DNA from: an uncultured Alphaproteobacteria bacterium
Lineage (GTDB): Bacteria > Pseudomonadota > Alphaproteobacteria > HIMB59 > GCA-002718135
NCBI GenBank assembly: GCA_902612825.1
Contig: CACMET010000003.1
Coordinates: 50,536 to 114,535 of the forward strand
Length of the DNA stretch: 64,000 nucleotides
Direction: 5' to 3'
The position numbers and the translations under genes are program-made. Shown one piece after another: positions 3,874 through 58,643 of the stretch. The notes under the pieces are model-generated. The model did no database searches and was not told the origin of the DNA. It saw nothing but the letters and a program-made list of their open reading frames with translations. Every line of letters begins with the position of its first letter. Position 1 is the first letter of the stretch.

Positions 3874-4668
3874 TTAAATATATTCAAATTCAATTGAACC
3901 CAATTGATTAAAATCAGCTTTAATTTTACTTTTAGGATAAATTCTAAATGCTTTAGTGCAAGATCCAGAACTAATAAACTGACCTTTTAGCATTGGCTCG
4001 CCTTTTTCTGCAAGATTGTTTATCAGCCAAAGAACTGCGTTTAATGGATTATCCAATACATTTTTTGTATTTCCAGTATCTACAATTGTGTCATTTATTA
4101 ATAAACTTACATCAAAATTGTTAAGATCTACATCTTTAATTTTAATTAAATTTTCATCACGTATCCAAAATTCTGAGGCTCCATTAGTTGATATTACATT
4201 TAATGCACCAATCTCTGATAATGGTTTTCTAAATCTAAAATCAACTATTTCAACTGAACAAAATAAACCATCTAATAAGTTATCTAAGTCTTTAAATATG
4301 AAAGGTGCTTTAGAAATATTTATATCATCTTTTATTCTGAAACTAATTTCTGGCTCAACATAGGGTTCAAAGAAATTTTTAGAATTCAATAAATTAATAT
4401 TTTTTGAACTGTATCGGTTAAATAAATTTCCATAGAAAGGTTCTTTTATATTCATTTGTTTCTGTGCAGCTTGAGAAGTGCATCCAATTTTTTTTCCAAT
4501 ACAGAAATTATCTTTCAGTTCTAAGTATCTAAGTTTTAAATTATCTTGAATCGCATAAGCTTCATTCATTGTTTGAGGTTCTAAATTTTTCAAAGAACTT
4601 AAACCAGTTTTATTTAATCTATGTTCAAATAAAATTTTTGATGCCTCTTGAATATCTTCTTTAATCAT
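3874..4668 (-). CDS. 2-keto-4-pentenoate hydratase / FAH-fold hydratase-decarboxylase family (MhpD-like)
   Basis: 264 aa with AYAIQDNL near the N-terminus and a C-terminal FAH-fold pattern. Confidence 0.65.
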   Translation of the reverse strand: MIKEDIQEASKILFEHRLNKTGLSSLKNLEPQTMNEAYAIQDNLKLRYLELKDNFCIGKKIGCTSQAAQKQMNIKEPFYGNLFNRYSSKNINLLNSKNFFEPYVEPEISFRIKDDINISKAPFIFKDLDNLLDGLFCSVEIVDFRFRKPLSEIGALNVISTNGASEFWIRDENLIKIKDVDLNNFDVSLLINDTIVDTGNTKNVLDNPLNAVLWLINNLAEKGEPMLKGQFISSGSCTKAFRIYPKSKIKADFNQLGSIEFEYI

Positions 4669-36896: not shown

Positions 36897-37214
36897 TTAT
36901 AAAAGTATATCTTTGTATTTTTTTTTAAATTGATTTAATTTTCCTCTAACATCAAAATCTAATCTGTAAGAAGTATAAAAGTCTTGCTTGGTTCCCATAT
37001 TAATTTTAGTCATTCTAACAAATTGTAGATCCATTTCTTCTACTTTATCGACATTTCTTACTAGTAAAGCTAATTTCCATTCTAGTTCCTTACTACGTAA
37101 ATTATTAGGAATGGTATGTTCTTCTGTTTTATTTTTATCATTTAAATTAAATAATTTTGAAATGTTTTGTATCATGATTATTAATAAACTTAGATTTAGT
37201 ATTTTATTATTCAA
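36897..37214 (-). CDS. Hypothetical protein (weak call)
   Basis: 105-aa ORF with no SD and no family. It may not be expressed. Confidence 0.3.
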   Translation of the reverse strand: MNNKILNLSLLIIMIQNISKLFNLNDKNKTEEHTIPNNLRSKELEWKLALLVRNVDKVEEMDLQFVRMTKINMGTKQDFYTSYRLDFDVRGKLNQFKKKYKDILL

Positions 37215-37361
37215 TAGGGTTAATTTTACTAAGATGAACTAACAAATATTAACAGTATTAATATTTTTAATTGAAATGTAATAATTATGTAATATTTAAT
37301 CTATGAACGATTTGACTCTATTGCGGTTTACAAGCAGCTAAAATGAGATACGTATAAATTT

Positions 37362-37400
37362 ATCCTCCCATTAAGAAAAATGGTGAGGATATTTTTTTTT
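37362..37400 (+). terminator. Intrinsic terminator immediately upstream of an SD and start codon (attenuator or sRNA 3' end)
   Basis: ATCCTCCCAT-loop-ATGGTGAGGAT forms 10 bp with one bulge, followed by A+T9. AGGAGA and the ATG at 37412 come next. Confidence 0.6.
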
Positions 37401-37411
37401 AGGAGATAATT

Positions 37412-37669
37412 ATGAATTTATGTGTTGTATCAAAAGGATCTTTTACCAAAGAAGATTACATGGAATTATACAATTTTTTTAAAGATGATATTGCCAAATA
37501 TACAGATGCATTTGATATGGCTTTCGTTAAAGATGGCCATGTAATGATTATGTGTAATGTTACTGATGAAGAAAAATTTTATGCTTTATTTGATGATCCA
37601 AAATCTAAAGAATTTGATTCAAAATTTAATAGTACAGATACAGTCTATTCTTTACAAAAAGTAGAATAG
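37412..37669 (+). CDS. Small soluble protein, unknown function
   Basis: 85 aa with SD AGGAGA. Confidence 0.5.
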   Translation: MNLCVVSKGSFTKEDYMELYNFFKDDIAKYTDAFDMAFVKDGHVMIMCNVTDEEKFYALFDDPKSKEFDSKFNSTDTVYSLQKVE

Positions 37670-38281
37670 TTATAATCCACCTTGAGAAATTAAGAAGTCA
37701 GAAATTTTTTCAATTCCGTTATTATTTTTCATTTCACCAAAAATATAAGGTAAACCATTTCTGGCTTCATTCACATCCTCTTTCATTTGCTCTAAATCAA
37801 CATTAACATATGGAGCAAGGTCAACTTTATTAATTATGAGTAAATCAGACTTTCTAATTGCTGGTGCTTTTTTTCTCGGTATGTCGGCACCTTGAGCCAC
37901 ATCTATCATATAAATTGTTAAATCAACTAACTCTGGACTAAAAGTTGCTGCTAAATTATCACCACCTGACTCAATAAGGATTAACTCTAAATCTGGAAAT
38001 TTTTTTTTCATTTCATCAACTGCAAGTAAATTGATACTACAATCTTCTCTTATAGCAGTATGTGGACATCCCCCAGTTTCAACACCTTTAATTCTCTCTA
38101 TTGGTAGAACTTGTGCTTTCATTAGATATTCGGCATCTTCAGTTGTATAAATATCATTTGAAATAACTGCCATAGAGAATTTTTTAGATAAATAACGACA
38201 TAACGCTTCTGTTAAACTTGTTTTACCAGTCCCTATTCCGCCTCCAATACCAACTTTTAAAGGTCCATTTATATTATTCAC
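37670..38281 (-). CDS. ureG: Urease accessory GTPase UreG
   Basis: P-loop GGIGTGKTS; CPH metal motif ([11 protein letters not shown]); NKVDL. Confidence 0.95.
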
Positions 38282-38913
38282 GTTAAATAAATCCTTGAGT
38301 CTAAATATTCATGCTTAATGGCAAAAATATCACCAATAAAAAAACTTGAACCTATATCTTTAAGAGTCAGCTTATCTGAATGACTTAAAAATTCTTGAAT
38401 TTGATTAATAAAAATAACATTAAGACTCTGTCCATCTTTTTGAGACATTGGGATATGTTTTACACATACATTGATTAAATTAGTAATGAATGATTGTAGA
38501 TAAAACTTAATTAAATCATCAAACTTAATATTAAAATGTAATCCAGCTTTTGTTAAACAATATATAAATGATGTATTTTCAGGTAAAGATAATTCCCAAC
38601 TATCTTTCATGATTTTACGAAAAGAATTTCCCATATCTATCATTTCTATTTGCCTTTCTTTAGAAGAAGCACTTGCTAAGATTAATTGATTAATTTCATC
38701 ACCTTTGTAAATAGACTTAATAAAAATATAGTCATTTCTTAATGTTCCATAAAATAAAAGGGCATTTAAAAATTCTTTAACATCATTATTATTTTTAATT
38801 TTTTTATCATCAATCAGAGCTTCTAAACCATGAGAGTATGCGTAAGAACCTATAGGAAAAGAAGATGAAAACCATACTTGTAGTATTTGATGAGGATCTT
38901 TAAATTTTTTCAT
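38278..38913 (-). CDS. ureF: Urease accessory protein UreF
   Basis: [13 protein letters not shown] motif. I chose the start at 38913 (MKKFKDPHQ), just after the ureE stop, rather than the track start at 38979. Confidence 0.85.
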
Positions 38914-38914
38914 T

Positions 38915-39358
38915 TTAATGTTTGTGGCTATGTGTTCTGCCCATACCATAAGCACCACCTTCAGGTTTAAATTTTTCAAAAACTTTTTTTACATTTCCGT
39001 GTAATTTTAGAACCATATCAAGAATTACAGCATCATCTTGAATAAGAATTCTGTTTTCTTCAATTTGACATGGCAGATGTCTATTTCCTATGTGCCATAT
39101 GATTTGCTTTAAATTTTCACCCGTTATTTCAATTAGATTTTCTTCTTTAGATATAACTTTAATTAATTTTCCATTGTCTAATTCAAAATAATAATTTTCA
39201 TCAACACTGACGGTTTCTTCAAGATTAACTAAAAATTCAGTACCATTATTTGCTATAAGTTTTTTTCTACGAATGAATCTTTCTTCATAAGATAGTGAAA
39301 TTTCATCAAATACTTCTTTATCATTTTTGTGATGAATAATTTTGAATGAAGTATCCAT
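38915..39358 (-). CDS. ureE: Urease accessory protein UreE
   Basis: 147 aa with IGNRHLP and a His-rich tail THSHKH. Confidence 0.85.
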   Translation of the reverse strand: MDTSFKIIHHKNDKEVFDEISLSYEERFIRRKKLIANNGTEFLVNLEETVSVDENYYFELDNGKLIKVISKEENLIEITGENLKQIIWHIGNRHLPCQIEENRILIQDDAVILDMVLKLHGNVKKVFEKFKPEGGAYGMGRTHSHKH

Positions 39359-39359
39359 T

Positions 39360-41066
39360 TTAGTACATAAAATAACGTTGAGCTAAAGGTAGTGTTTCAG
39401 CTGGCTCACAAGTAATTAATTCACCATCTGCTAAAACTTCGTAAGTTTCTGGATTCACTTCGATTTTTGGACAATAATCATTAAATATCATATCCTTTTT
39501 TGAAATTTTTCTGATATTTTTAACTGGCAATAAAGATTTACTAATTCCAGAATTTTTGAATGAATTTTTATCAAGAGATGCTTTACTTACAAATGTTGTG
39601 GTAGATTTTTCTAATGATTTTCCAAAGGAAGAAAACATTGGTCTTGAGTATACTGGTTGTGGTGTCGGTATAGATGCATTAGGATCACCCATTTGTGCGC
39701 AAGCAATACTTCCACCTTGCAAAACCATTTCAGGTTTAACACCAAAAAAAGCAGTGTCCCAAATAACAATATCAGCACGTTTATTTTTTTCAATACTTCC
39801 AATATATTCGGAAATACCATGGGCAATTGCAGGATTAATTGTATATTTAGCAATATATCTTTTAACTCTTACATTGTCGTTATCACCCTGCTCTTCTTTT
39901 AATTGTCCCCGTTGAACTTTCATTTTATGTGCTGTTTGCCATGTTCTAATAATAACCTCACCAACACGACCCATAGCTTGACTATCAGAAGCAATAATTG
40001 AAAAAGCACCCATGTCATGCAGTATATCTTCTGCAGCAATTGTTTCCTTTCGAATTCGACTTTCAGCAAAAGCAACGTCTTCAGGTATTGATTTATCTAA
40101 GTGATGACAAACCATTAACATATCCAAATGCTCTTCAACTGTATTAACTGTATAGGGCCTAGTTGGATTAGTTGAAGAAGGAATAACATATTCTTCACCA
40201 CAAACTTTTATAATATCAGGTGCATGACCACCACCAGCTCCTTCAGTATGAAAAGCATGAATTGTTCTTCCATTAATTGCTTTAATTGTGCTTTCCACAA
40301 AACCACTTTCATTTAATGTATCTGTGTGAATCATAACTTGGATATCATAGTCATCAGCTACATTTAAACAATTATCTATTGCTGCCGGGGTTGTTCCCCA
40401 ATCTTCATGTAATTTTAGTGAACTTGCACCAGCAATTACTTGTTCTAAAAGTGCTTTAGGCAATGAACTATTTCCTTTACCTGCAAAAGCCAAGTTCATA
40501 GAAAAAGCATCTGCTGATTGTATCATTTTTTCTATATGCCATGGTCCAGGTGTAACTGTAGTTGCCAAAGTGCCATGTGCAGGTCCAGTTCCACCTCCCA
40601 ACATTGTTGTGATACCTGAATGAAGAGCATCGTCAATTTGCTGAGGACAAATAAAATGGATATGACTATCAAATCCGCCAGCTGTTATAATTTTACCTTC
40701 CCCAGCAATTATTTCTGTTCCTGGTCCAATAATAATATTTACATTTGGTTGTGTATCCGGATTACCAGCCTTTCCAATCTCATTAATTAAACCATCTTTA
40801 AGTCCAATATCTGCTTTATAAATTCCATTTACATCTATTATTAAAGCGTTTGTTATGACTGTATCAACAGCACCATCTATACGAGATACTTGAGATTGTC
40901 CCATTCCATCTCGAATGACCTTTCCTCCACCAAATTTTACTTCTTCTCCATATGTTGTTAAATCTTTTTCCACTTCAATAAAAAGTTCAGTGTCAGCAAG
41001 TCTAACTTTATCACCAGTTGTTGGTCCATACATATCGGCATAAGCTTCTCTTTTTATTTTTTTCAT
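39360..41066 (-). CDS. ureC: Urease alpha subunit
   Basis: 568 aa with [17 protein letters not shown] and the carbamylated-Lys context LKLHEDWG. Confidence 0.97.
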
Positions 41067-41374
41067 TACAATTGACCCATAACTTTCTTATTAAAACCAA
41101 ATATCTTTCTATTTCCGGTTATCGGAATTAATTCTATATCTTTTGATTGACCTGGTTCAAATCGAACAGCTGTACCAGATGGTATATCTAAGCGCATACC
41201 ATGTGATTTATCTCTATCAAATTTTAAATATTTATTTGTTTCTGCAAAATGATAATGACTACCAACTTGAATTGGTCGATCTCCACTATTTGAAACTTTT
41301 ATAGTGATTGATTGTCTTTCACCATTCAAATTAATGTCACTATTTTGTTTTGTTATTATCTCACCAGGTTTCAT
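41066..41374 (-). CDS. ureB: Urease beta subunit
   Basis: 102 aa with MKPGEI..., [13 protein letters not shown] and RFEPG. Confidence 0.95.
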
Positions 41375-41676
41375 TATCTTATCGGTTTATGTACTGTTAC
41401 TAATTTTGTTCCATCAGGAAATGTTGCTTCTACCTGTACTTCAGGTATCATATCTGGAATACCATCCATGCAATCTTCTTTTTTTACTACGTGAGCCCCT
41501 GTTTCCATTAACTCTGATACCATTTTTCCATCTCTTGCACCTTCTATTACAAAATCTGTTATCAACGCTATAGCTTCTGGATAATTAAGTTTTACACCTC
41601 TTTCTAAACGTTTTCTGGCAACATTAGCTGCCATACTCACCATCAACTTATCTTTTTCTCTTGGTGTTAATTTCAT
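41374..41676 (-). CDS. ureA: Urease gamma subunit
   Basis: 100 aa with [12 protein letters not shown]... and [14 protein letters not shown]. Confidence 0.95.
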
Positions 41677-42471
41677 TTATAGATTCCAACTTTTTGGTAG
41701 TTTATCATTTATTACATTTTTCATAATAAAATTTAGTGTTTTTTTTAAATCATAATTATCATTGGCTAAGCACCTAATTACAATTTTATCATCAAATTTT
41801 GTCATTTCACAATAATGATTTTCTAAGTTTTTTGTAACTTTACTTATTTCAGACTCAAGTTGATGAATAATATCACCAAAAATTAAAACTGTTGCTAAAG
41901 ATGATTGATTATTAAATGTATAATTATTATTAAAATTATCAATCGTTGATCCTTTTATATTAATTGCTTCAAAATGCTTTATGGAAGAATTCGTAAAAAT
42001 TTTCCATTGATCAGAAAAAGAAATATTTTTAATTTTTTCAAACATTGCTTTTCTTCCAAAAATTGTAGTTTCACAAAAAATCAAATTAGAATTATCTGAT
42101 AGATTAACATTTATATTTCTTCTTAATTTTGAATTATCAAATAAAATTAACTCTTTGGGCAACCAATACAAAGTTGAATTATTTAAATTGATATTTATGT
42201 TAACTTTAGCAGGATCACCAATGCCAGCATAAATTTTTTCAGCAGCTTGAGTACAAATACTTAATTGAGAATTATGAATTGTAGCATTAATATCAATACT
42301 ATCATTACAAGTAATTCCACCTGCAGTGTTAATTAAAACTAATTCTTTATTATCATTATAATTTTTTGGATTTAAAATTTTACAACAACCGCTTTGAAAT
42401 AATTTTTTAAAATTATTATCTAGTAATTCGATATTAATTTTCCCATTTGACCTTTGAAGTAATTTATCCAT
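41677..42471 (-). CDS. ureD: Urease accessory protein UreD
   Basis: 264 aa at the first position of the ureDABCEFG array, with a UreD-like pattern. Confidence 0.8.
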   Translation of the reverse strand: MDKLLQRSNGKINIELLDNNFKKLFQSGCCKILNPKNYNDNKELVLINTAGGITCNDSIDINATIHNSQLSICTQAAEKIYAGIGDPAKVNININLNNSTLYWLPKELILFDNSKLRRNINVNLSDNSNLIFCETTIFGRKAMFEKIKNISFSDQWKIFTNSSIKHFEAINIKGSTIDNFNNNYTFNNQSSLATVLIFGDIIHQLESEISKVTKNLENHYCEMTKFDDKIVIRCLANDNYDLKKTLNFIMKNVINDKLPKSWNL

Positions 42472-42521
42472 AATTATTTAATTAAGTATAATCGAAACAA
42501 AATATATGAAAATGAATATTT

Positions 42522-42598
42522 GGCGTGCCCGGCATGATTCGAACATGCGGCCCCCAGATTAGGAATCTGGTGCTCTATCCTACTGAGCTACGAGCACT
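42522..42598 (-). tRNA. tRNA-Arg (anticodon CCU), CCA encoded
   Basis: Reverse complement GUGCUCGUAGCUCAGUAGGAUAGAGCACCAGAUUCCUAAUCUGGGGGCCGCAUGUUCGAAUCAUGCCGGGCACGCCA folds as a 7/4/5/5-bp cloverleaf with anticodon loop UUCCUAA. Confidence 0.9.
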
Positions 42599-55101: not shown

Positions 55102-55941
55102 TTATTGTTGAGAATCATTTTCCAATGTTTGTACATGAATATCTAAGTTTTCTATCACAGCATCATTATTAATATTTCCATAAAAAACACCCTTAATAGG
55201 TGATGCGTAACTTGCATCAAGTCCACAAGAAACACGTACGTATCTTTCATCTGGACTGCACTTATTTGTAGGATCAAATCCCACCCAACCTAAATCATGT
55301 ATATAAAATTCTGCCCACGCATGTGTAGATTGAAATTCTGAAGAATGGGAATTGTTATGCATATAACCATTAACGTATCTAGCAGGTATTCCTAAAGTTT
55401 TTGCTGCGGCAATCATAATATGTGCTTGATCCTGACAGACTCCCTTTTTCTGATTAAATGCTTCAATAGCTGTTGTTTGATTATTTGTCGTTAAAGGTTT
55501 GTATTCAATTTTTTCAGCTATTAGATTCATCAGATTATGAGATGTTTCTAGATTTTCATTTTCATTAAAACCATTTTTAGCTTCAATAGCTAAATTTTTT
55601 ATATCCGCATTTGCTTTTGTTAAATTTGATTCTCTTAAGTAAACTAAAGGATCTATTTTATCAGAAGCACTATGGTAAATTCCTTTTGTATCAAATGTTT
55701 CAACTTTTCCAAGAACTGTAAATTGTATTTTTTTCACCTTGTTTGTATTTGTAAAACTTTGAATATTATTAGCCTCACCATCCTGATAAATTTTTGATTT
55801 TTTGGCTGAGTCGTTATGGACATTCCACTTTAAAATTTTAAGACCATTATATTCTGAAGGATGCAGTTTAGTGGTTTGAATTAATCCCGCAACTGGATTT
55901 TTATATTCATACTTAGTTGTGTGTTCGATTATTAGTTCCAT
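55102..55941 (-). CDS. Transglutaminase-like cysteine peptidase family protein (Bact_transglu_N + transglutaminase core)
   Basis: GVCQDQAHIM (Cys), HAWAEFY (His) and GFDPTN (Asp). I chose the start at 55941 (MELIIEHTTKYEY), just after the alpha-E stop. Confidence 0.85.
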   Translation of the reverse strand: MELIIEHTTKYEYKNPVAGLIQTTKLHPSEYNGLKILKWNVHNDSAKKSKIYQDGEANNIQSFTNTNKVKKIQFTVLGKVETFDTKGIYHSASDKIDPLVYLRESNLTKANADIKNLAIEAKNGFNENENLETSHNLMNLIAEKIEYKPLTTNNQTTAIEAFNQKKGVCQDQAHIMIAAAKTLGIPARYVNGYMHNNSHSSEFQSTHAWAEFYIHDLGWVGFDPTNKCSPDERYVRVSCGLDASYASPIKGVFYGNINNDAVIENLDIHVQTLENDSQQ

Positions 55942-55942
55942 A

Positions 55943-56878
55943 TTAATTAAAAAACTCCTTATGTATTTCGTTATCAACACTAGATATTTTTCTAATAAAT
56001 TGTGTTACAAATTGATGAAGTCCATATTCAACAATAGTTTCTATTTTTTCTTCTTGAATTTTAGTATTTAGATCTTTTAAATTATTATAAATTCTTGCAA
56101 CTTTTTCTGGACTGCATGTTAGGTTAGTTAAATGTTTAACAATATTCTGAATACAAAAACTTAAAGATCTAGGGCAATTATTATTTAAAACTAAAAAGTC
56201 AGCAATTTTAGTTGCGGTAATATTACCATCGTATGCCCATCTAAAAGCTCTAAAAGAAGATAAAGAGCGAAGCAATATACTCCATTGCATATTATCGATA
56301 TTACCACCTACATATTGAGGCTTAGGTAATAAAACAAAATACTTTACATCTAATAATCTGGCAGAATTATCAGCCCTCTCAATAAATAAACCAAGAAAAA
56401 GAAAATTATAACCATCATTTCTAAGCAAAGAACTTAATGATCCTCTAAATAAGTTTACTTGTTCTATTGTCCACTCTGTCAGATCAGGTAAATCAGATTT
56501 TGTAAATTTTTGTTCTTTTAAGTTTAGTATCTCTTGATAAGTTTTATTAATTGCTAACCAAGACTCAGGGGTAAAGGAAGTTCTAACTACTAATGCGTTA
56601 TTTCGCGCATTAAGAATACAATTGTAAACAGATGAAGGATTACTTTCATCAAAAAATAAATAATCTTCCACATTTTTCTGTTCAATTGTATCATATTTAT
56701 TTTTATACCCCTCAATTGCTCCAGCAGCAGATAAAACTGATTCCCATTCATTATTATAACCACTTGGATTTGGAAAAAGAGACATTCTATAACCAACATC
56801 TAAAAGCCTGGCTGTAGTTTCAGCTCTTTCCATATAACGACTGATCCAATATAGATATTCAGCAGTTCTACTTAACAT
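55943..56878 (-). CDS. Alpha-E domain protein (DUF403, COG2307)
   Basis: MLSRTAEYLYWISRYMERAE... and a second ERADNSARLLDV repeat, typical of alpha-E. Confidence 0.85.
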   Translation of the reverse strand: MLSRTAEYLYWISRYMERAETTARLLDVGYRMSLFPNPSGYNNEWESVLSAAGAIEGYKNKYDTIEQKNVEDYLFFDESNPSSVYNCILNARNNALVVRTSFTPESWLAINKTYQEILNLKEQKFTKSDLPDLTEWTIEQVNLFRGSLSSLLRNDGYNFLFLGLFIERADNSARLLDVKYFVLLPKPQYVGGNIDNMQWSILLRSLSSFRAFRWAYDGNITATKIADFLVLNNNCPRSLSFCIQNIVKHLTNLTCSPEKVARIYNNLKDLNTKIQEEKIETIVEYGLHQFVTQFIRKISSVDNEIHKEFFN

Positions 56879-56887
56879 TTTTATTCC

Positions 56888-58297
56888 TCATTCAGCCAAA
56901 ACCCATGTGTCTTTCACTCCGCCTCCTTGGCTAGAATTGACAACAAAAGAACCTTCATTCATTGCAACTCTGGTTAAACCACCAGAACTTAATTGAGCTT
57001 GCTCTCCAATTAAACAAAATGGACGTAAATCTACCCTTCTTCCCTCAACTTGATTTTTGATTAGTGTTGGTGAAAATGAAAGATCAAGTAAAGGTTGAGC
57101 TATATATCCTTTTGGATTTGTTGAGAGTTTTGTTTTAAATTCATCTATAGAGGATTTAGAAGATTTTGGACCTATTAACATCCCATAACCTCCAGATCCA
57201 TCAACCTCTTTTACGACAAGTTCATTTATATTATCTAAAACATATTTTAATTCTTGTTCCTTTTCACAATTCCATGTTTCAACATTATCTAAGATTGGTT
57301 GTTCGCCTAAATAAAATTTGATCATCTCAGGTACATAAATATAAATTGCTTTGTCATCAGCTATGCCTGCTCCAGGAGCTGAACAGATATTGACACCACC
57401 TGTTCTATAAACATCCATAATTCCTGGAATACCAATTACAGATTGAGGATTAAAACATAAAGGATCTAAAAAATCGTCATCTATTCTTCTGTAAACTACA
57501 TCTACTCTTTTTGGACCATCAACTGTTTTCATATAAAGATATTTTCCTTCAACAAATAAATCTGTTGATTCAACCATTTCAATACCCATTTGATCTGATA
57601 AAAAACTATGTTCGTAGTAAGCGCTATTTAAAGGACCAGGTGTAAGTAACACACATACTGGTTCTGGATTTTCACATTTAATAGGAGCTAAACTCATCAA
57701 GGTTTGCAAAAGTCTTGTTGGGTAGTCATCTATTGGTGTTACCCTGTTGTTATGAAATAAATCAGGAAACATTCGCATCATTATTTCTCTATTTTCTAGC
57801 ATGTAAGAAACACCACTTGGTGTTCGACAATTATCTTCTAAAACAAAATAATCATTGGGACCTGTTCTTACTAAATCAATACCAATTATAGGACTATAGA
57901 TATCTCTAGGAGGAGAAAAACCAAACATTGAAGGTTCAAAAGATTTTTTTTTGTAAATTATTTCTTTAGGAATTATATTAGCTTTTATTATTTCACCTTG
58001 ATTATAAATATCAGCAAGAAACGCATTAAGTGCTTTAGCTCTTTGGATTACTCCTCTTTCTAATCTTAACCATTCAGTATAGGTAAATATCCTTGGAATT
58101 AAATCAAACGGAATAATTCTTTCTCTTGCAGTTTCATTATTTGTAGAAAATGTAATTCCAATATTTCTAAAATGAGTTTCAGCTTCAGCATTCTTTTCAA
58201 GAATAACTTTTGAAGTCATTTGATCTAACCAATCATTAATATTGTTATAATGATTTCTTATAACTGTTTCAGATTGATACATTTCATTAAACATCAA
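56888..58297 (-). CDS. Circularly permuted type-2 ATP-grasp protein (DUF404/DUF407, COG2308)
   Basis: GITFS, IIPFDLIPRIFTYTEW, VLEDNCRTPSGVSYMLENR. The start is TTG 58297 or ATG 58294, with AGAGG upstream. Confidence 0.9.
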   Translation of the reverse strand: MMFNEMYQSETVIRNHYNNINDWLDQMTSKVILEKNAEAETHFRNIGITFSTNNETARERIIPFDLIPRIFTYTEWLRLERGVIQRAKALNAFLADIYNQGEIIKANIIPKEIIYKKKSFEPSMFGFSPPRDIYSPIIGIDLVRTGPNDYFVLEDNCRTPSGVSYMLENREIMMRMFPDLFHNNRVTPIDDYPTRLLQTLMSLAPIKCENPEPVCVLLTPGPLNSAYYEHSFLSDQMGIEMVESTDLFVEGKYLYMKTVDGPKRVDVVYRRIDDDFLDPLCFNPQSVIGIPGIMDVYRTGGVNICSAPGAGIADDKAIYIYVPEMIKFYLGEQPILDNVETWNCEKEQELKYVLDNINELVVKEVDGSGGYGMLIGPKSSKSSIDEFKTKLSTNPKGYIAQPLLDLSFSPTLIKNQVEGRRVDLRPFCLIGEQAQLSSGGLTRVAMNEGSFVVNSSQGGGVKDTWVLAE

Positions 58298-58422
58298 TGA
58301 GTGAACCTCTTGAGATTTGAATAGAATATTTTTTTATTATCTAACTTTTTAACCATAGTTATAACAAACCTTTCTTATCCGTTATAATTCATGCTTAGCT
58401 ATGGAAATTAATAATAAGATCC

Positions 58423-58474
58423 GCGTTCCTTCAGCTTTAGCCTACTTCCGATCTGTTAATACAGATTGAACGAT
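58423..58474 (-). promoter_or_regulatory. Glutamine riboswitch aptamer (glnA RNA motif), gene-proximal copy
   Basis: Minus strand UCGUUCA-AUCUGUAUUAACAGAU-CGGAAGUA-GGCUAAAGCU-GAAGGAACGC, with P1 CGUUC/GAACG and two internal hairpins. Confidence 0.75.
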
Positions 58475-58488
58475 TTAATAACTTGCAT

Positions 58489-58541
58489 GCGTTCCTTCAA
58501 CTTTCGTTTACTTCCGTTTTGAATTATTCAAAATGAACGAT
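58489..58541 (-). promoter_or_regulatory. Glutamine riboswitch aptamer (glnA RNA motif), distal copy
   Basis: Minus strand UCGUUCA-UUUUGAAUAAUUCAAAA-CGGAAGUA-AACGAAAGUU-GAAGGAACGC. The conserved blocks are the same, and the hairpin sequences differ but keep their pairing. Confidence 0.75.
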
Positions 58542-58643
58542 GAAATTTTAATAATAAAATTTATTTATTTTTAAAAATGAATTTCATACTTATTTGATAT
58601 GCATTTTTTGCATATACAAAATAATATTGAATTACTTATGGTT

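Follow-up and report, generated by a model that had tools for sequence, protein, structure and literature searches.

What does the leader RNA of an uncharacterised three-gene operon in an AT-rich alphaproteobacterial genome sense, and in which direction would it pass the signal on to the genes behind it? We use the term window for the whole stretch of DNA that was analysed, 64,000 nucleotides in length. A covariance-model scan of the entire window against Rfam 15 (cmscan) recovered four matches that reach the gathering score, of which two belong to the glutamine riboswitch model RF01739 (gathering score 35) and lie next to each other in a 5' leader, on the same strand as the operon that they precede:

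58541..58486, minus strand: glutamine riboswitch aptamer 1 (RF01739; 66.0 bits, E 2.1e-12), P1 to P1 at 58539..58490
58474..58420, minus strand: glutamine riboswitch aptamer 2 (RF01739; 64.2 bits, E 6.8e-12), P1 to P1 at 58472..58424

Each of these matches covers model positions 1-53 of 53, all the upper-case consensus positions of RF01739 are matched in both copies, and the plus strand of the window gave no RF01739 match in the same scan. The core single strands CGGAAGUA and GAAGGAACG, together with a C residue directly after P1 (58489 in aptamer 1 and 58423 in aptamer 2), are found in both copies and are invariant in alignment A1, which comprises the 26 orthologous leaders of those relatives whose ATP-grasp protein is 86-100% identical to that of the window; P1 and the two internal hairpins are likewise kept across these leaders. 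Since the Glutamine-II model (RF01704, the Downstream-peptide motif) reached only a sub-threshold 16.8 bits against its gathering score of 33, and this on aptamer 2 only, in a permissive scan of the leader, we assign the aptamers to type 1. By sequence and fold, the two are a genuine tandem type-1 glutamine riboswitch, and it is very probable that they act as a functional switch controlling the ATP-grasp operon, with glutamine as the predicted ligand.

The preliminary description of this DNA had recognized a tandem glnA motif on the minus strand with an ATP-grasp gene as its target, and the Rfam and Pfam matches bear this out. Its remark that the internal hairpins have changed in sequence from one copy to the other but still pair is correct, and its 52-nt units lying 15 nt apart agree with ours under its own definition of the unit, the linker from P1 to P1 being 17 nt. 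It had placed the pair about 125 nt upstream of the ATP-grasp start; the distance from aptamer 2 to the ATG at 58294 is 129 nt, so that the placement holds approximately and the figure is corrected. Of the checks that it proposed, the RF01739 search on the minus strand returned the two scores given above against 35, the Downstream-peptide model stayed below threshold, and the comparison of orthologous leaders revealed conservation with some covariation. The conserved expression platform of the leader was missed by that description.

The operon that follows consists of three genes, for none of whose products is there an NCBIfam name:

58294..56888, minus strand: gene 1, circularly permuted ATP-grasp protein, 468 aa from the ATG (Pfam CP_ATPgrasp_2, PF14403, E 4.3e-153)
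56878..55943, minus strand: gene 2, Alpha-E domain protein (Pfam Alpha-E, PF04168, E 1.1e-86)
55980..55102, minus strand: gene 3, transglutaminase-like protein (Pfam Bact_transglu_N and Transglut_core, PF08379 and PF01841)

The Alpha-E gene follows the ATP-grasp gene in each of the 48 loci compared, and the order ATP-grasp, Alpha-E, transglutaminase is kept from SAR11 to Rhodobacterales wherever the sequence extends that far. The small ORFs past the operon, for which we obtained no Pfam or NCBIfam match, are conserved in close relatives only; upstream, on the same strand, Pfam identifies a CDP-alcohol phosphatidyltransferase, a NUDIX protein and a photolyase-related protein. Urease genes are also present in the window, about 17 kb from the operon.

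The preliminary description held that the target is not a classical nitrogen-assimilation gene; there are, however, indirect links of the operon to nitrogen, which rest in part on the riboswitch module that it shares with glnA and amt. In Pseudomonas putida, PP_2688, an ATP-grasp protein likened by annotation to the type found in the window, responds to the nitrogen source: when nitrate replaces ammonium, PP_2688 and PP_2685 are induced with log2 fold changes of about 4 and 4.4 (approximately 16- to 22-fold), accompanied by urease and urea-transport genes (PMC8050072, Table 2). In marine metagenomes, an ecogenomic study reported that DUF403/404/407 and Bact_transglu_N co-vary with domains of urea metabolism. 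The P. putida system differs from that of the window in that its neighbor PP_2685 is a proteasome-like beta subunit, whereas the window has the three core genes and an RNA sensor. The control of PP_2685 and PP_2688 is presumably exerted by protein regulators (NtrC-type). We consider it likely that the operon of the window is coupled, through the tandem riboswitch in its 5' leader, to intracellular glutamine, itself a reporter of nitrogen status.

To what lineage does this arrangement belong? We compared the ATP-grasp protein with one genome per GTDB species, which gave 546 relatives, and kept the best 80 of these 546. They fall into three sets: (i) proteins 86-100% identical, from marine single-cell genomes labelled "uncultured Alphaproteobacteria bacterium AG-..." and from "Pelagibacteraceae bacterium AG-337-I02", whose copy is 90% identical and has the same riboswitch upstream; (ii) proteins 73-77% identical, from genomes labelled Pelagibacteraceae or Pelagibacterales; (iii) proteins approximately 62-64% identical, mostly from Rhodobacterales. 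These labels make "SAR11-type" a fair description of the genome, and the same term in the preliminary description agrees with the G+C content of the window (27.5%) and with the identical or near-identical ATP-grasp genes of the marine alphaproteobacterial and Pelagibacteraceae single-cell genomes. Among the best 80 of 546, the aptamer pair keeps its position with respect to the ATP-grasp start in 26 of the 26 loci of the closest set (L001-L025 and L041; G+C 26-29%; one locus ends at a contig end), and an Rfam scan of representative carriers confirmed RF01739. In the 17 loci of the 73-77% set, neither a pattern scan nor Rfam at its gathering threshold found RF01739 upstream of the ATP-grasp gene, and the leaders there are short, unrelated to that of the window and bear another conserved motif; a pattern scan of the 37 Rhodobacterales and other GC-rich loci (L044-L080) likewise found no riboswitch. 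The association of riboswitch and ATP-grasp gene is fixed in one AT-rich clade of Pelagibacteraceae type and missing from its sister.

Within A1, 99.4% of the cells belonging to aptamer pairs are paired, versus 26-53% in slid controls. Double-sided changes are seen at two aptamer pairs, in the second hairpin of each aptamer, along with several wobble changes. The conservation is thus good but the covariation modest, because the divergence within A1 is small, and the identification of the aptamers comes mainly from the model scores.

Outside the aptamers proper, the leaders keep two further sequences that are complementary to each other:

58489..58473, minus strand: inter-aptamer linker CAUGCAAGUUAUUAAAU, 17 nt, nearly invariant in A1
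58489..58478, minus strand: 5' strand of the relay helix, formed by linker bases (RNAalifold pairing with the 3' element)
58407..58388, minus strand: near-invariant 3' element UUUCCAUAGCUAAGCAUGAA (A1)
58402..58390, minus strand: 3' strand of the relay helix, AUAGCU-AA-GCAUG (RNAalifold)

The first base of the linker is the conserved C after P1 of aptamer 1; after aptamer 2, A1 displays a variable AU-rich spacer and then the invariant element (U)CCAUAGCUAAGCAUGA. RNAalifold on A1 joins linker and element in a relay helix of 11 bp, in which CAUGC/GCAUG and AGUUAU/AUAGCU are arranged around a small internal loop and which has aptamer 2 lying inside it. The linker/element duplex of the present leader comes to -8.8 kcal/mol, where the controls, random windows of the same contigs, average about -2, and in 98 non-redundant leaders from the three gene groups considered below it ranges from -8.8 to -10 against about -2; the median share of controls that do as well is at most 0.4%, and all 98 leaders fall within the best 5%. 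The substitutions in the helix are wobble-compatible (A-U to G-U, U-G to U-A), there is no double-compensatory change among 116 leaders, and the two inner pairs are lost in 18 of these 116. The relay helix is thus well supported by complementarity and joint conservation, but it is unproven by covariation.

Between this element and the ATP-grasp gene lie a hairpin and a short upstream ORF (uORF), and a palindrome stands before the first aptamer:

58615..58597: palindrome ATATGCA-AAAAA-TGCATAT, approximately 74 nt upstream of aptamer 1, candidate transcription-factor operator
58387..58359, minus strand: hairpin H3 (UUAUAACGGAU / GUUUGUUAUAA), present in the minimum-free-energy and centroid folds
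58356..58294, minus strand: uORF of 20 codons (MVKKLDNKKIFYSNLKRFTH), whose TGA stop overlaps the ATP-grasp ATG (TGATG)

The order palindrome, aptamer 1, linker, aptamer 2, 3' element, hairpin and a uORF that ends on the main start codon is conserved. H3 has a purine-rich loop (AAGAAAG) and a stem that varies by subclade with its pairing kept (AUAACAG/CUGUUAU, AUAGCAG/CUGUUAU). A uORF of 16-20 codons, starting 55-65 nt before the main ATG, is present in 27 of 27 leaders and has its stop within -6 to +8 of that ATG in every one of them, as TGATG or TAATG in the subclade of the window, and yet its peptide sequence is wholly different between subclades. It is accordingly translation itself and the site at which it stops that are conserved and not the peptide, the pattern to be expected of translational coupling. 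The palindrome, as ATGCA-N5-TGCAT at -73/-74 from aptamer 1, was counted in 22 of 28 leaders before ATP-grasp genes, 15 of 35 before amt and none of 40 before glnA; it is probably an operator that adds a layer of transcriptional control common to amt. We make no claim for a transcription start, since the 14 matches of the promoter scan do not exceed expectation (9.1 ± 3.0). No intrinsic terminator was predicted in the leader.

Constrained folding suggests how these parts might be connected. With both aptamers enforced, the relay helix forms and the AUG of the uORF is unpaired in the predicted structure (-45.4 kcal/mol); on blocking the C+AUGC tail, the uORF AUG becomes paired (-42.8/-42.7), at a cost of about 2.6 kcal/mol. 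The CCAUAG and CAUG segments of the element have an alternative pairing with the uORF start region: CCAUAG/CUAUGG stacked on top of H3 is the minimum-free-energy fold of the 3' part of the leader taken alone, and a CAUG:(U)AUG closure over H3 can be drawn in every subclade. Random windows do as well as this element/start-site pairing in a median 5-10% of cases, in 7-12% for the leader of the window and in about 50% for subclade L022-L025. We hence treat this pairing as a hypothesis, modestly better than random windows and weak in L022-L025. Complementarity between the tail of aptamer 2 and the 5' portion of the element is weak, being equalled by a median 10-24% of controls, and is not counted as firm. 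A tiny ORF that begins with the invariant AUG in GCAUGA varies in length and frame (2-5 codons, or fused) and is rejected as conserved coding sequence. The stability of the whole-leader fold does not differ from that of shuffled sequences (z = -0.18).

The module is not confined to the ATP-grasp operon. The preliminary description regarded the glnA motif as unusual in an AT-rich alphaproteobacterium ahead of such an operon; the RNA is less rare outside cyanobacteria than that view implies, long-linker tandems being abundant on AT-rich marine contigs, where they stand before glnA and amt. We found at least 120 of them in metagenome contigs with a G+C content of 25-38%; among the matches listed, approximately 95 of 110 have a linker of the family CAUGC-A(1-4)-(A/G)GUUAU and the downstream genes encode a type I glutamine synthetase, an ammonium transporter or the ATP-grasp protein. 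A matching 3' element, AUA(G/A)CU-..-GCAUGA, is present in all three gene groups. The glnA and amt tandems thus share with the window both the linker (CAUGC-A(n)-AGUUAU) and the element ((U)UUCC/UUUC-AUA(G/A)CU-..-GCAUGA), and the amt-type leaders have in addition the upstream palindrome at the same spacing. They differ in that their conserved elements are placed exactly around the start codons and SD sequences, with a normal SD and the GlnA or Amt start codon and without a uORF, whereas the window has a uORF, an element of the amt type and an SD-like AUGG turned into the start of that uORF. The element moreover finds better partners in the start regions of amt genes than in that of its own leader. 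With element and palindrome both of the amt type, the leader of the ATP-grasp gene has the look of a copy taken over from amt, the AUGG that once belonged to the SD region having become the start of the uORF. The glnA-type leaders come directly after a gene ending in ...IRIRTGEKDSDAV, an ending that we take to resemble that of a PII protein; on account of this PII-like neighbor, the organisms that carry the glnA-type version may differ from the SAR11 that lack PII.

The viral tandems present a different picture. Viral contigs yielded at least 120 tandem aptamers (L081-L200) and a single long-linker tandem. Like the window, the viral and marine tandem glnA RNAs have two RF01739-type aptamers head to tail in a 5' leader; however, the viral ones are joined by linkers of 6-11 nt, in place of the 17-nt linker, the relay helix around aptamer 2, the hairpin and the uORF of the window. 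In the viral platform an anti-SD (CACCU/CAUCU) directly after P1 of aptamer 2 pairs with an SD some 30 nt before the start codon of a small phage gene. The aptamer-2 tail of the window has weak partners only, and we found no platform of the cyanobacterial or cyanophage type there, the aptamer-1 tail pairing with the relay element and the start codon lying 129 nt off.

The closest experimental point of reference is the gifB leader of Synechocystis, which has the same aptamer sequence and fold as the window and in which the C 3' of P1 likewise begins a helix with downstream sequence (PMC6212724). In the account of the class mechanism given there in citing Ren 2015, binding of glutamine draws the C after P1 into a long-range G-C pair, and the short helix joined to P1 melts. 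The melted helix is proposed to mask the ribosome-binding site in gifB, so that glutamine turns the gene on; gifB is the only type-1 glutamine riboswitch characterised in vivo, and it is an ON switch (PMC6212724). The two systems differ in several respects: a cyanobacterium with one aptamer as against an AT-rich heterotroph of Pelagibacteraceae type with two; a glutamine synthetase inactivating factor as the target as against an ATP-grasp operon reached via a uORF; and a tail directed to the ribosome-binding site as against one directed to a relay element, with OFF as the predicted sign.

Briefly, we advance the following mechanism for the window. In the absence of bound glutamine, the linker would pair with the 3' element to form the relay helix, leaving the start codon of the uORF free; the uORF would then be translated, and ribosomes terminating at TGATG would re-initiate on the ATP-grasp gene. 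Upon binding of glutamine, the C after P1 of aptamer 1 would be captured into the aptamer and the attached helix would melt, whereupon the freed element (CCAUAG/CAUG) might pair across H3 with the CUAUGG of the uORF start region and shut off translation. Because the partner of the aptamer-1 tail is the relay element and not a ribosome-binding site, the logic of gifB would be turned round and the switch would amount to a double negative. An OFF sign fits the company of glnA and amt as well as the induction of the P. putida genes on nitrate relative to ammonium. Modelled in this way, a translational switch that acts through the relay and is off at high glutamine is our tentative preference, with chances that we place slightly short of even.

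Other readings of the same leader have to be set beside this one. The sign could be the opposite, with glutamine turning the operon on as in gifB and the melting of the tail helices exposing the initiation region, as might suit, for example, an operon that uses surplus glutamine or glutamate. The sole type-1 riboswitch characterised in vivo does activate translation with glutamine (Klahn 2018, PMC6212724), the pairing that would sequester the start site in our preferred mechanism has modest support, and it is plausible that ATP-grasp ligases use up amino acids at times of nitrogen surplus. Nevertheless, the aptamer-1 tail of the window pairs with the relay element and not with a ribosome-binding site, the same sensor and relay precede glnA and amt, whose induction at high glutamine would be physiologically odd, and the related P. 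putida genes are induced on the poorer nitrogen source. We hence regard an ON switch as unlikely.

Alternatively, the aptamers could act on transcription or RNA stability, through Rho-dependent termination in the leader or through access of RNases, with the uORF serving as a shield. The length (129 nt) and AT-richness of the spacer would accommodate this, as would the unconstrained peptide sequence of the uORF. Translation of uORFs commonly modulates the access of Rho. However, there is no intrinsic terminator in the leader, the conserved elements of the glnA and amt versions sit exactly around start codons and SD sequences, and the uORF stop stays at the main ATG, a sign of translational coupling; action at the level of transcription or stability is thus quite improbable. 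Least credible of all, to the point of being barely conceivable, is that the pair arose by chance or is in decay and does nothing at present, or that it is a repeat at the level of DNA: two adjacent full-length matches each have E-values of about 1e-12, and across 26 species-level genomes their position and core are invariant while flanks and stems change with the pairing preserved.

How much of this is new? There is nothing unusual in the aptamers themselves: their class is known, and any annotation that uses Rfam would pick them up. Reports of 2010-2011 described the motif, identified glutamine as its ligand and placed it with PII, glnA, gltB and amt genes in marine metagenomes; the tandem occurrence of glnA RNAs in such metagenomes was already noted by Weinberg et al. 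2010 (PMC2864571), whose list of gene classes includes glnA and amt. As of Klahn 2018 (PMC6212724), glutamine riboswitches in sequenced genomes were considered exclusive to cyanobacteria, the owners of the metagenomic glnA-associated copies were unknown, and the mode of action of the class was described as unclear. Later papers mention in passing RF01739 matches in pelagiphage-like phages, SAR86 and a Pelagibacter genome bin. Where a nitrogen-limitation study of Pelagibacter ubique HTCC1062 refers to the glutamine riboswitch, it names cyanobacteria and metagenomes as the only sources. We found no literature linking the riboswitch to an ATP-grasp/Alpha-E/transglutaminase operon, and the supplements of Weinberg et al. 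2010, including part of the glnA alignment, show no DUF404, COG2308 or transglutaminase term. The assignment to a lineage and the regulated operon are new; the relay platform may be so too, an earlier mention in Ames & Breaker 2011 or Ren et al. 2015 being possible.

Against this backdrop, a conserved tandem copy of the glutamine riboswitch is now placed in a lineage of Pelagibacteraceae type, namely that of the window and 26 related single-cell genomes. The helix between linker and 3' element suggests how a tandem glutamine riboswitch might transduce binding. The wiring of the operon to a glutamine sensor, one common to glnA and amt, offers a way to test what this operon family, uncharacterised though widespread in bacteria, is for, and it agrees with both the induction in P. 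putida and the co-variation with urea genes in the ocean. In a wider reading, which we hold to be possible with the balance lying somewhat against it, glnA, amt and the ATP-grasp operon would form an RNA-based nitrogen regulon in streamlined AT-rich marine bacteria, in which a relay built around aptamer 2 inverts the cyanobacterial ON switch to OFF. If so, SAR11-type cells would have a direct sensor of glutamine, and the operon formerly known by its DUF403/404/407 domains would join the nitrogen-starvation response, for example by the tagging and turnover of proteins or peptides that recycles their nitrogen.

The leader of the riboswitch operon in the window, which encodes ATP-grasp, Alpha-E and transglutaminase-like proteins, contains a further element beyond the tandem glutamine aptamers, namely an inverted repeat preceding the first of them:

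58597-58615: palindrome ATATGCA-N5-TGCATAT, 74 nt upstream of aptamer 1

The palindrome recurs at identical spacing in many of the leaders of ammonium transporter (amt) genes on metagenome contigs (e.g., L212, L214 and L217); in the glutamine synthetase (glnA) leaders, compared at this same spacing, it is not shared with the window. We regard it as a candidate operator, at which some nitrogen regulator would bind. The SAR11 ATP-grasp loci L028-L043, which lack the riboswitch, present a different conserved motif within a short leader that adjoins a divergent gene:

Locus position ~3910-3940: TGTCAATTTGGCAA(A/T)(G/T)GCATAAAATTAA, ~60-90 nt before the ATP-grasp start codon (ATG)

This motif might constitute an alternative regulatory site for the same ATP-grasp operon.

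The window additionally codes for urease, separated from the riboswitch operon by a sugar-type ABC transporter, an FGGY kinase and a glycoside hydrolase:

36900-42500, minus strand: urease gene cluster (ureD, small subunits, ureC and accessory-size ORFs)
39360-41066, minus strand: urease alpha-subunit gene
42524-42597, minus strand: tRNA gene, after the urease cluster

An Rfam match to RF02514 (5' ureB sRNA; 113.8 bits; 40628-40917, plus strand) falls within the alpha-subunit gene in antisense orientation. This family was described in Helicobacter, and a 2025 paper also lists it for a Pelagibacterales genome bin. In the window, the match probably stems from the conserved coding region of urease and not from a genuine sRNA.

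The tandem architecture itself is also found outside the window. Its short-linker version occurs on at least 120 viral contigs from IMG/VR (L081-L200; G+C 34-42%), where it precedes small, conserved genes (MTKYQ..., MTMWTRYCRE...) and features an anti-SD (CACCU/CAUCU) pairing with the SD. On metagenome contigs, we found another family of linker (CGCCGUUAACAGGAAAACG...), which can fold into a hairpin of its own. In L238 (8080-8254, plus strand) it joins three RF01739 aptamers in tandem, scoring 66-68 bits each, upstream of a gene for a porin-like Gcw_chp protein; in L243 and L224 it precedes a type-II-like glutamine synthetase. Separately, some metagenome contigs (L286, L217, L244 and L252) each carry two distinct tandem riboswitches ~2 kb apart, with amt-like genes downstream of both in L286.

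Finally, in the glnA-type leaders (L204-L248 and others), the tandem riboswitch is directly preceded, 130 nt upstream of aptamer 1, by a gene ending in ...IRIRTGEKDSDAV*. This ending resembles the C-terminus of a PII protein; if so, these loci would represent a glnB-riboswitch-glnA arrangement.
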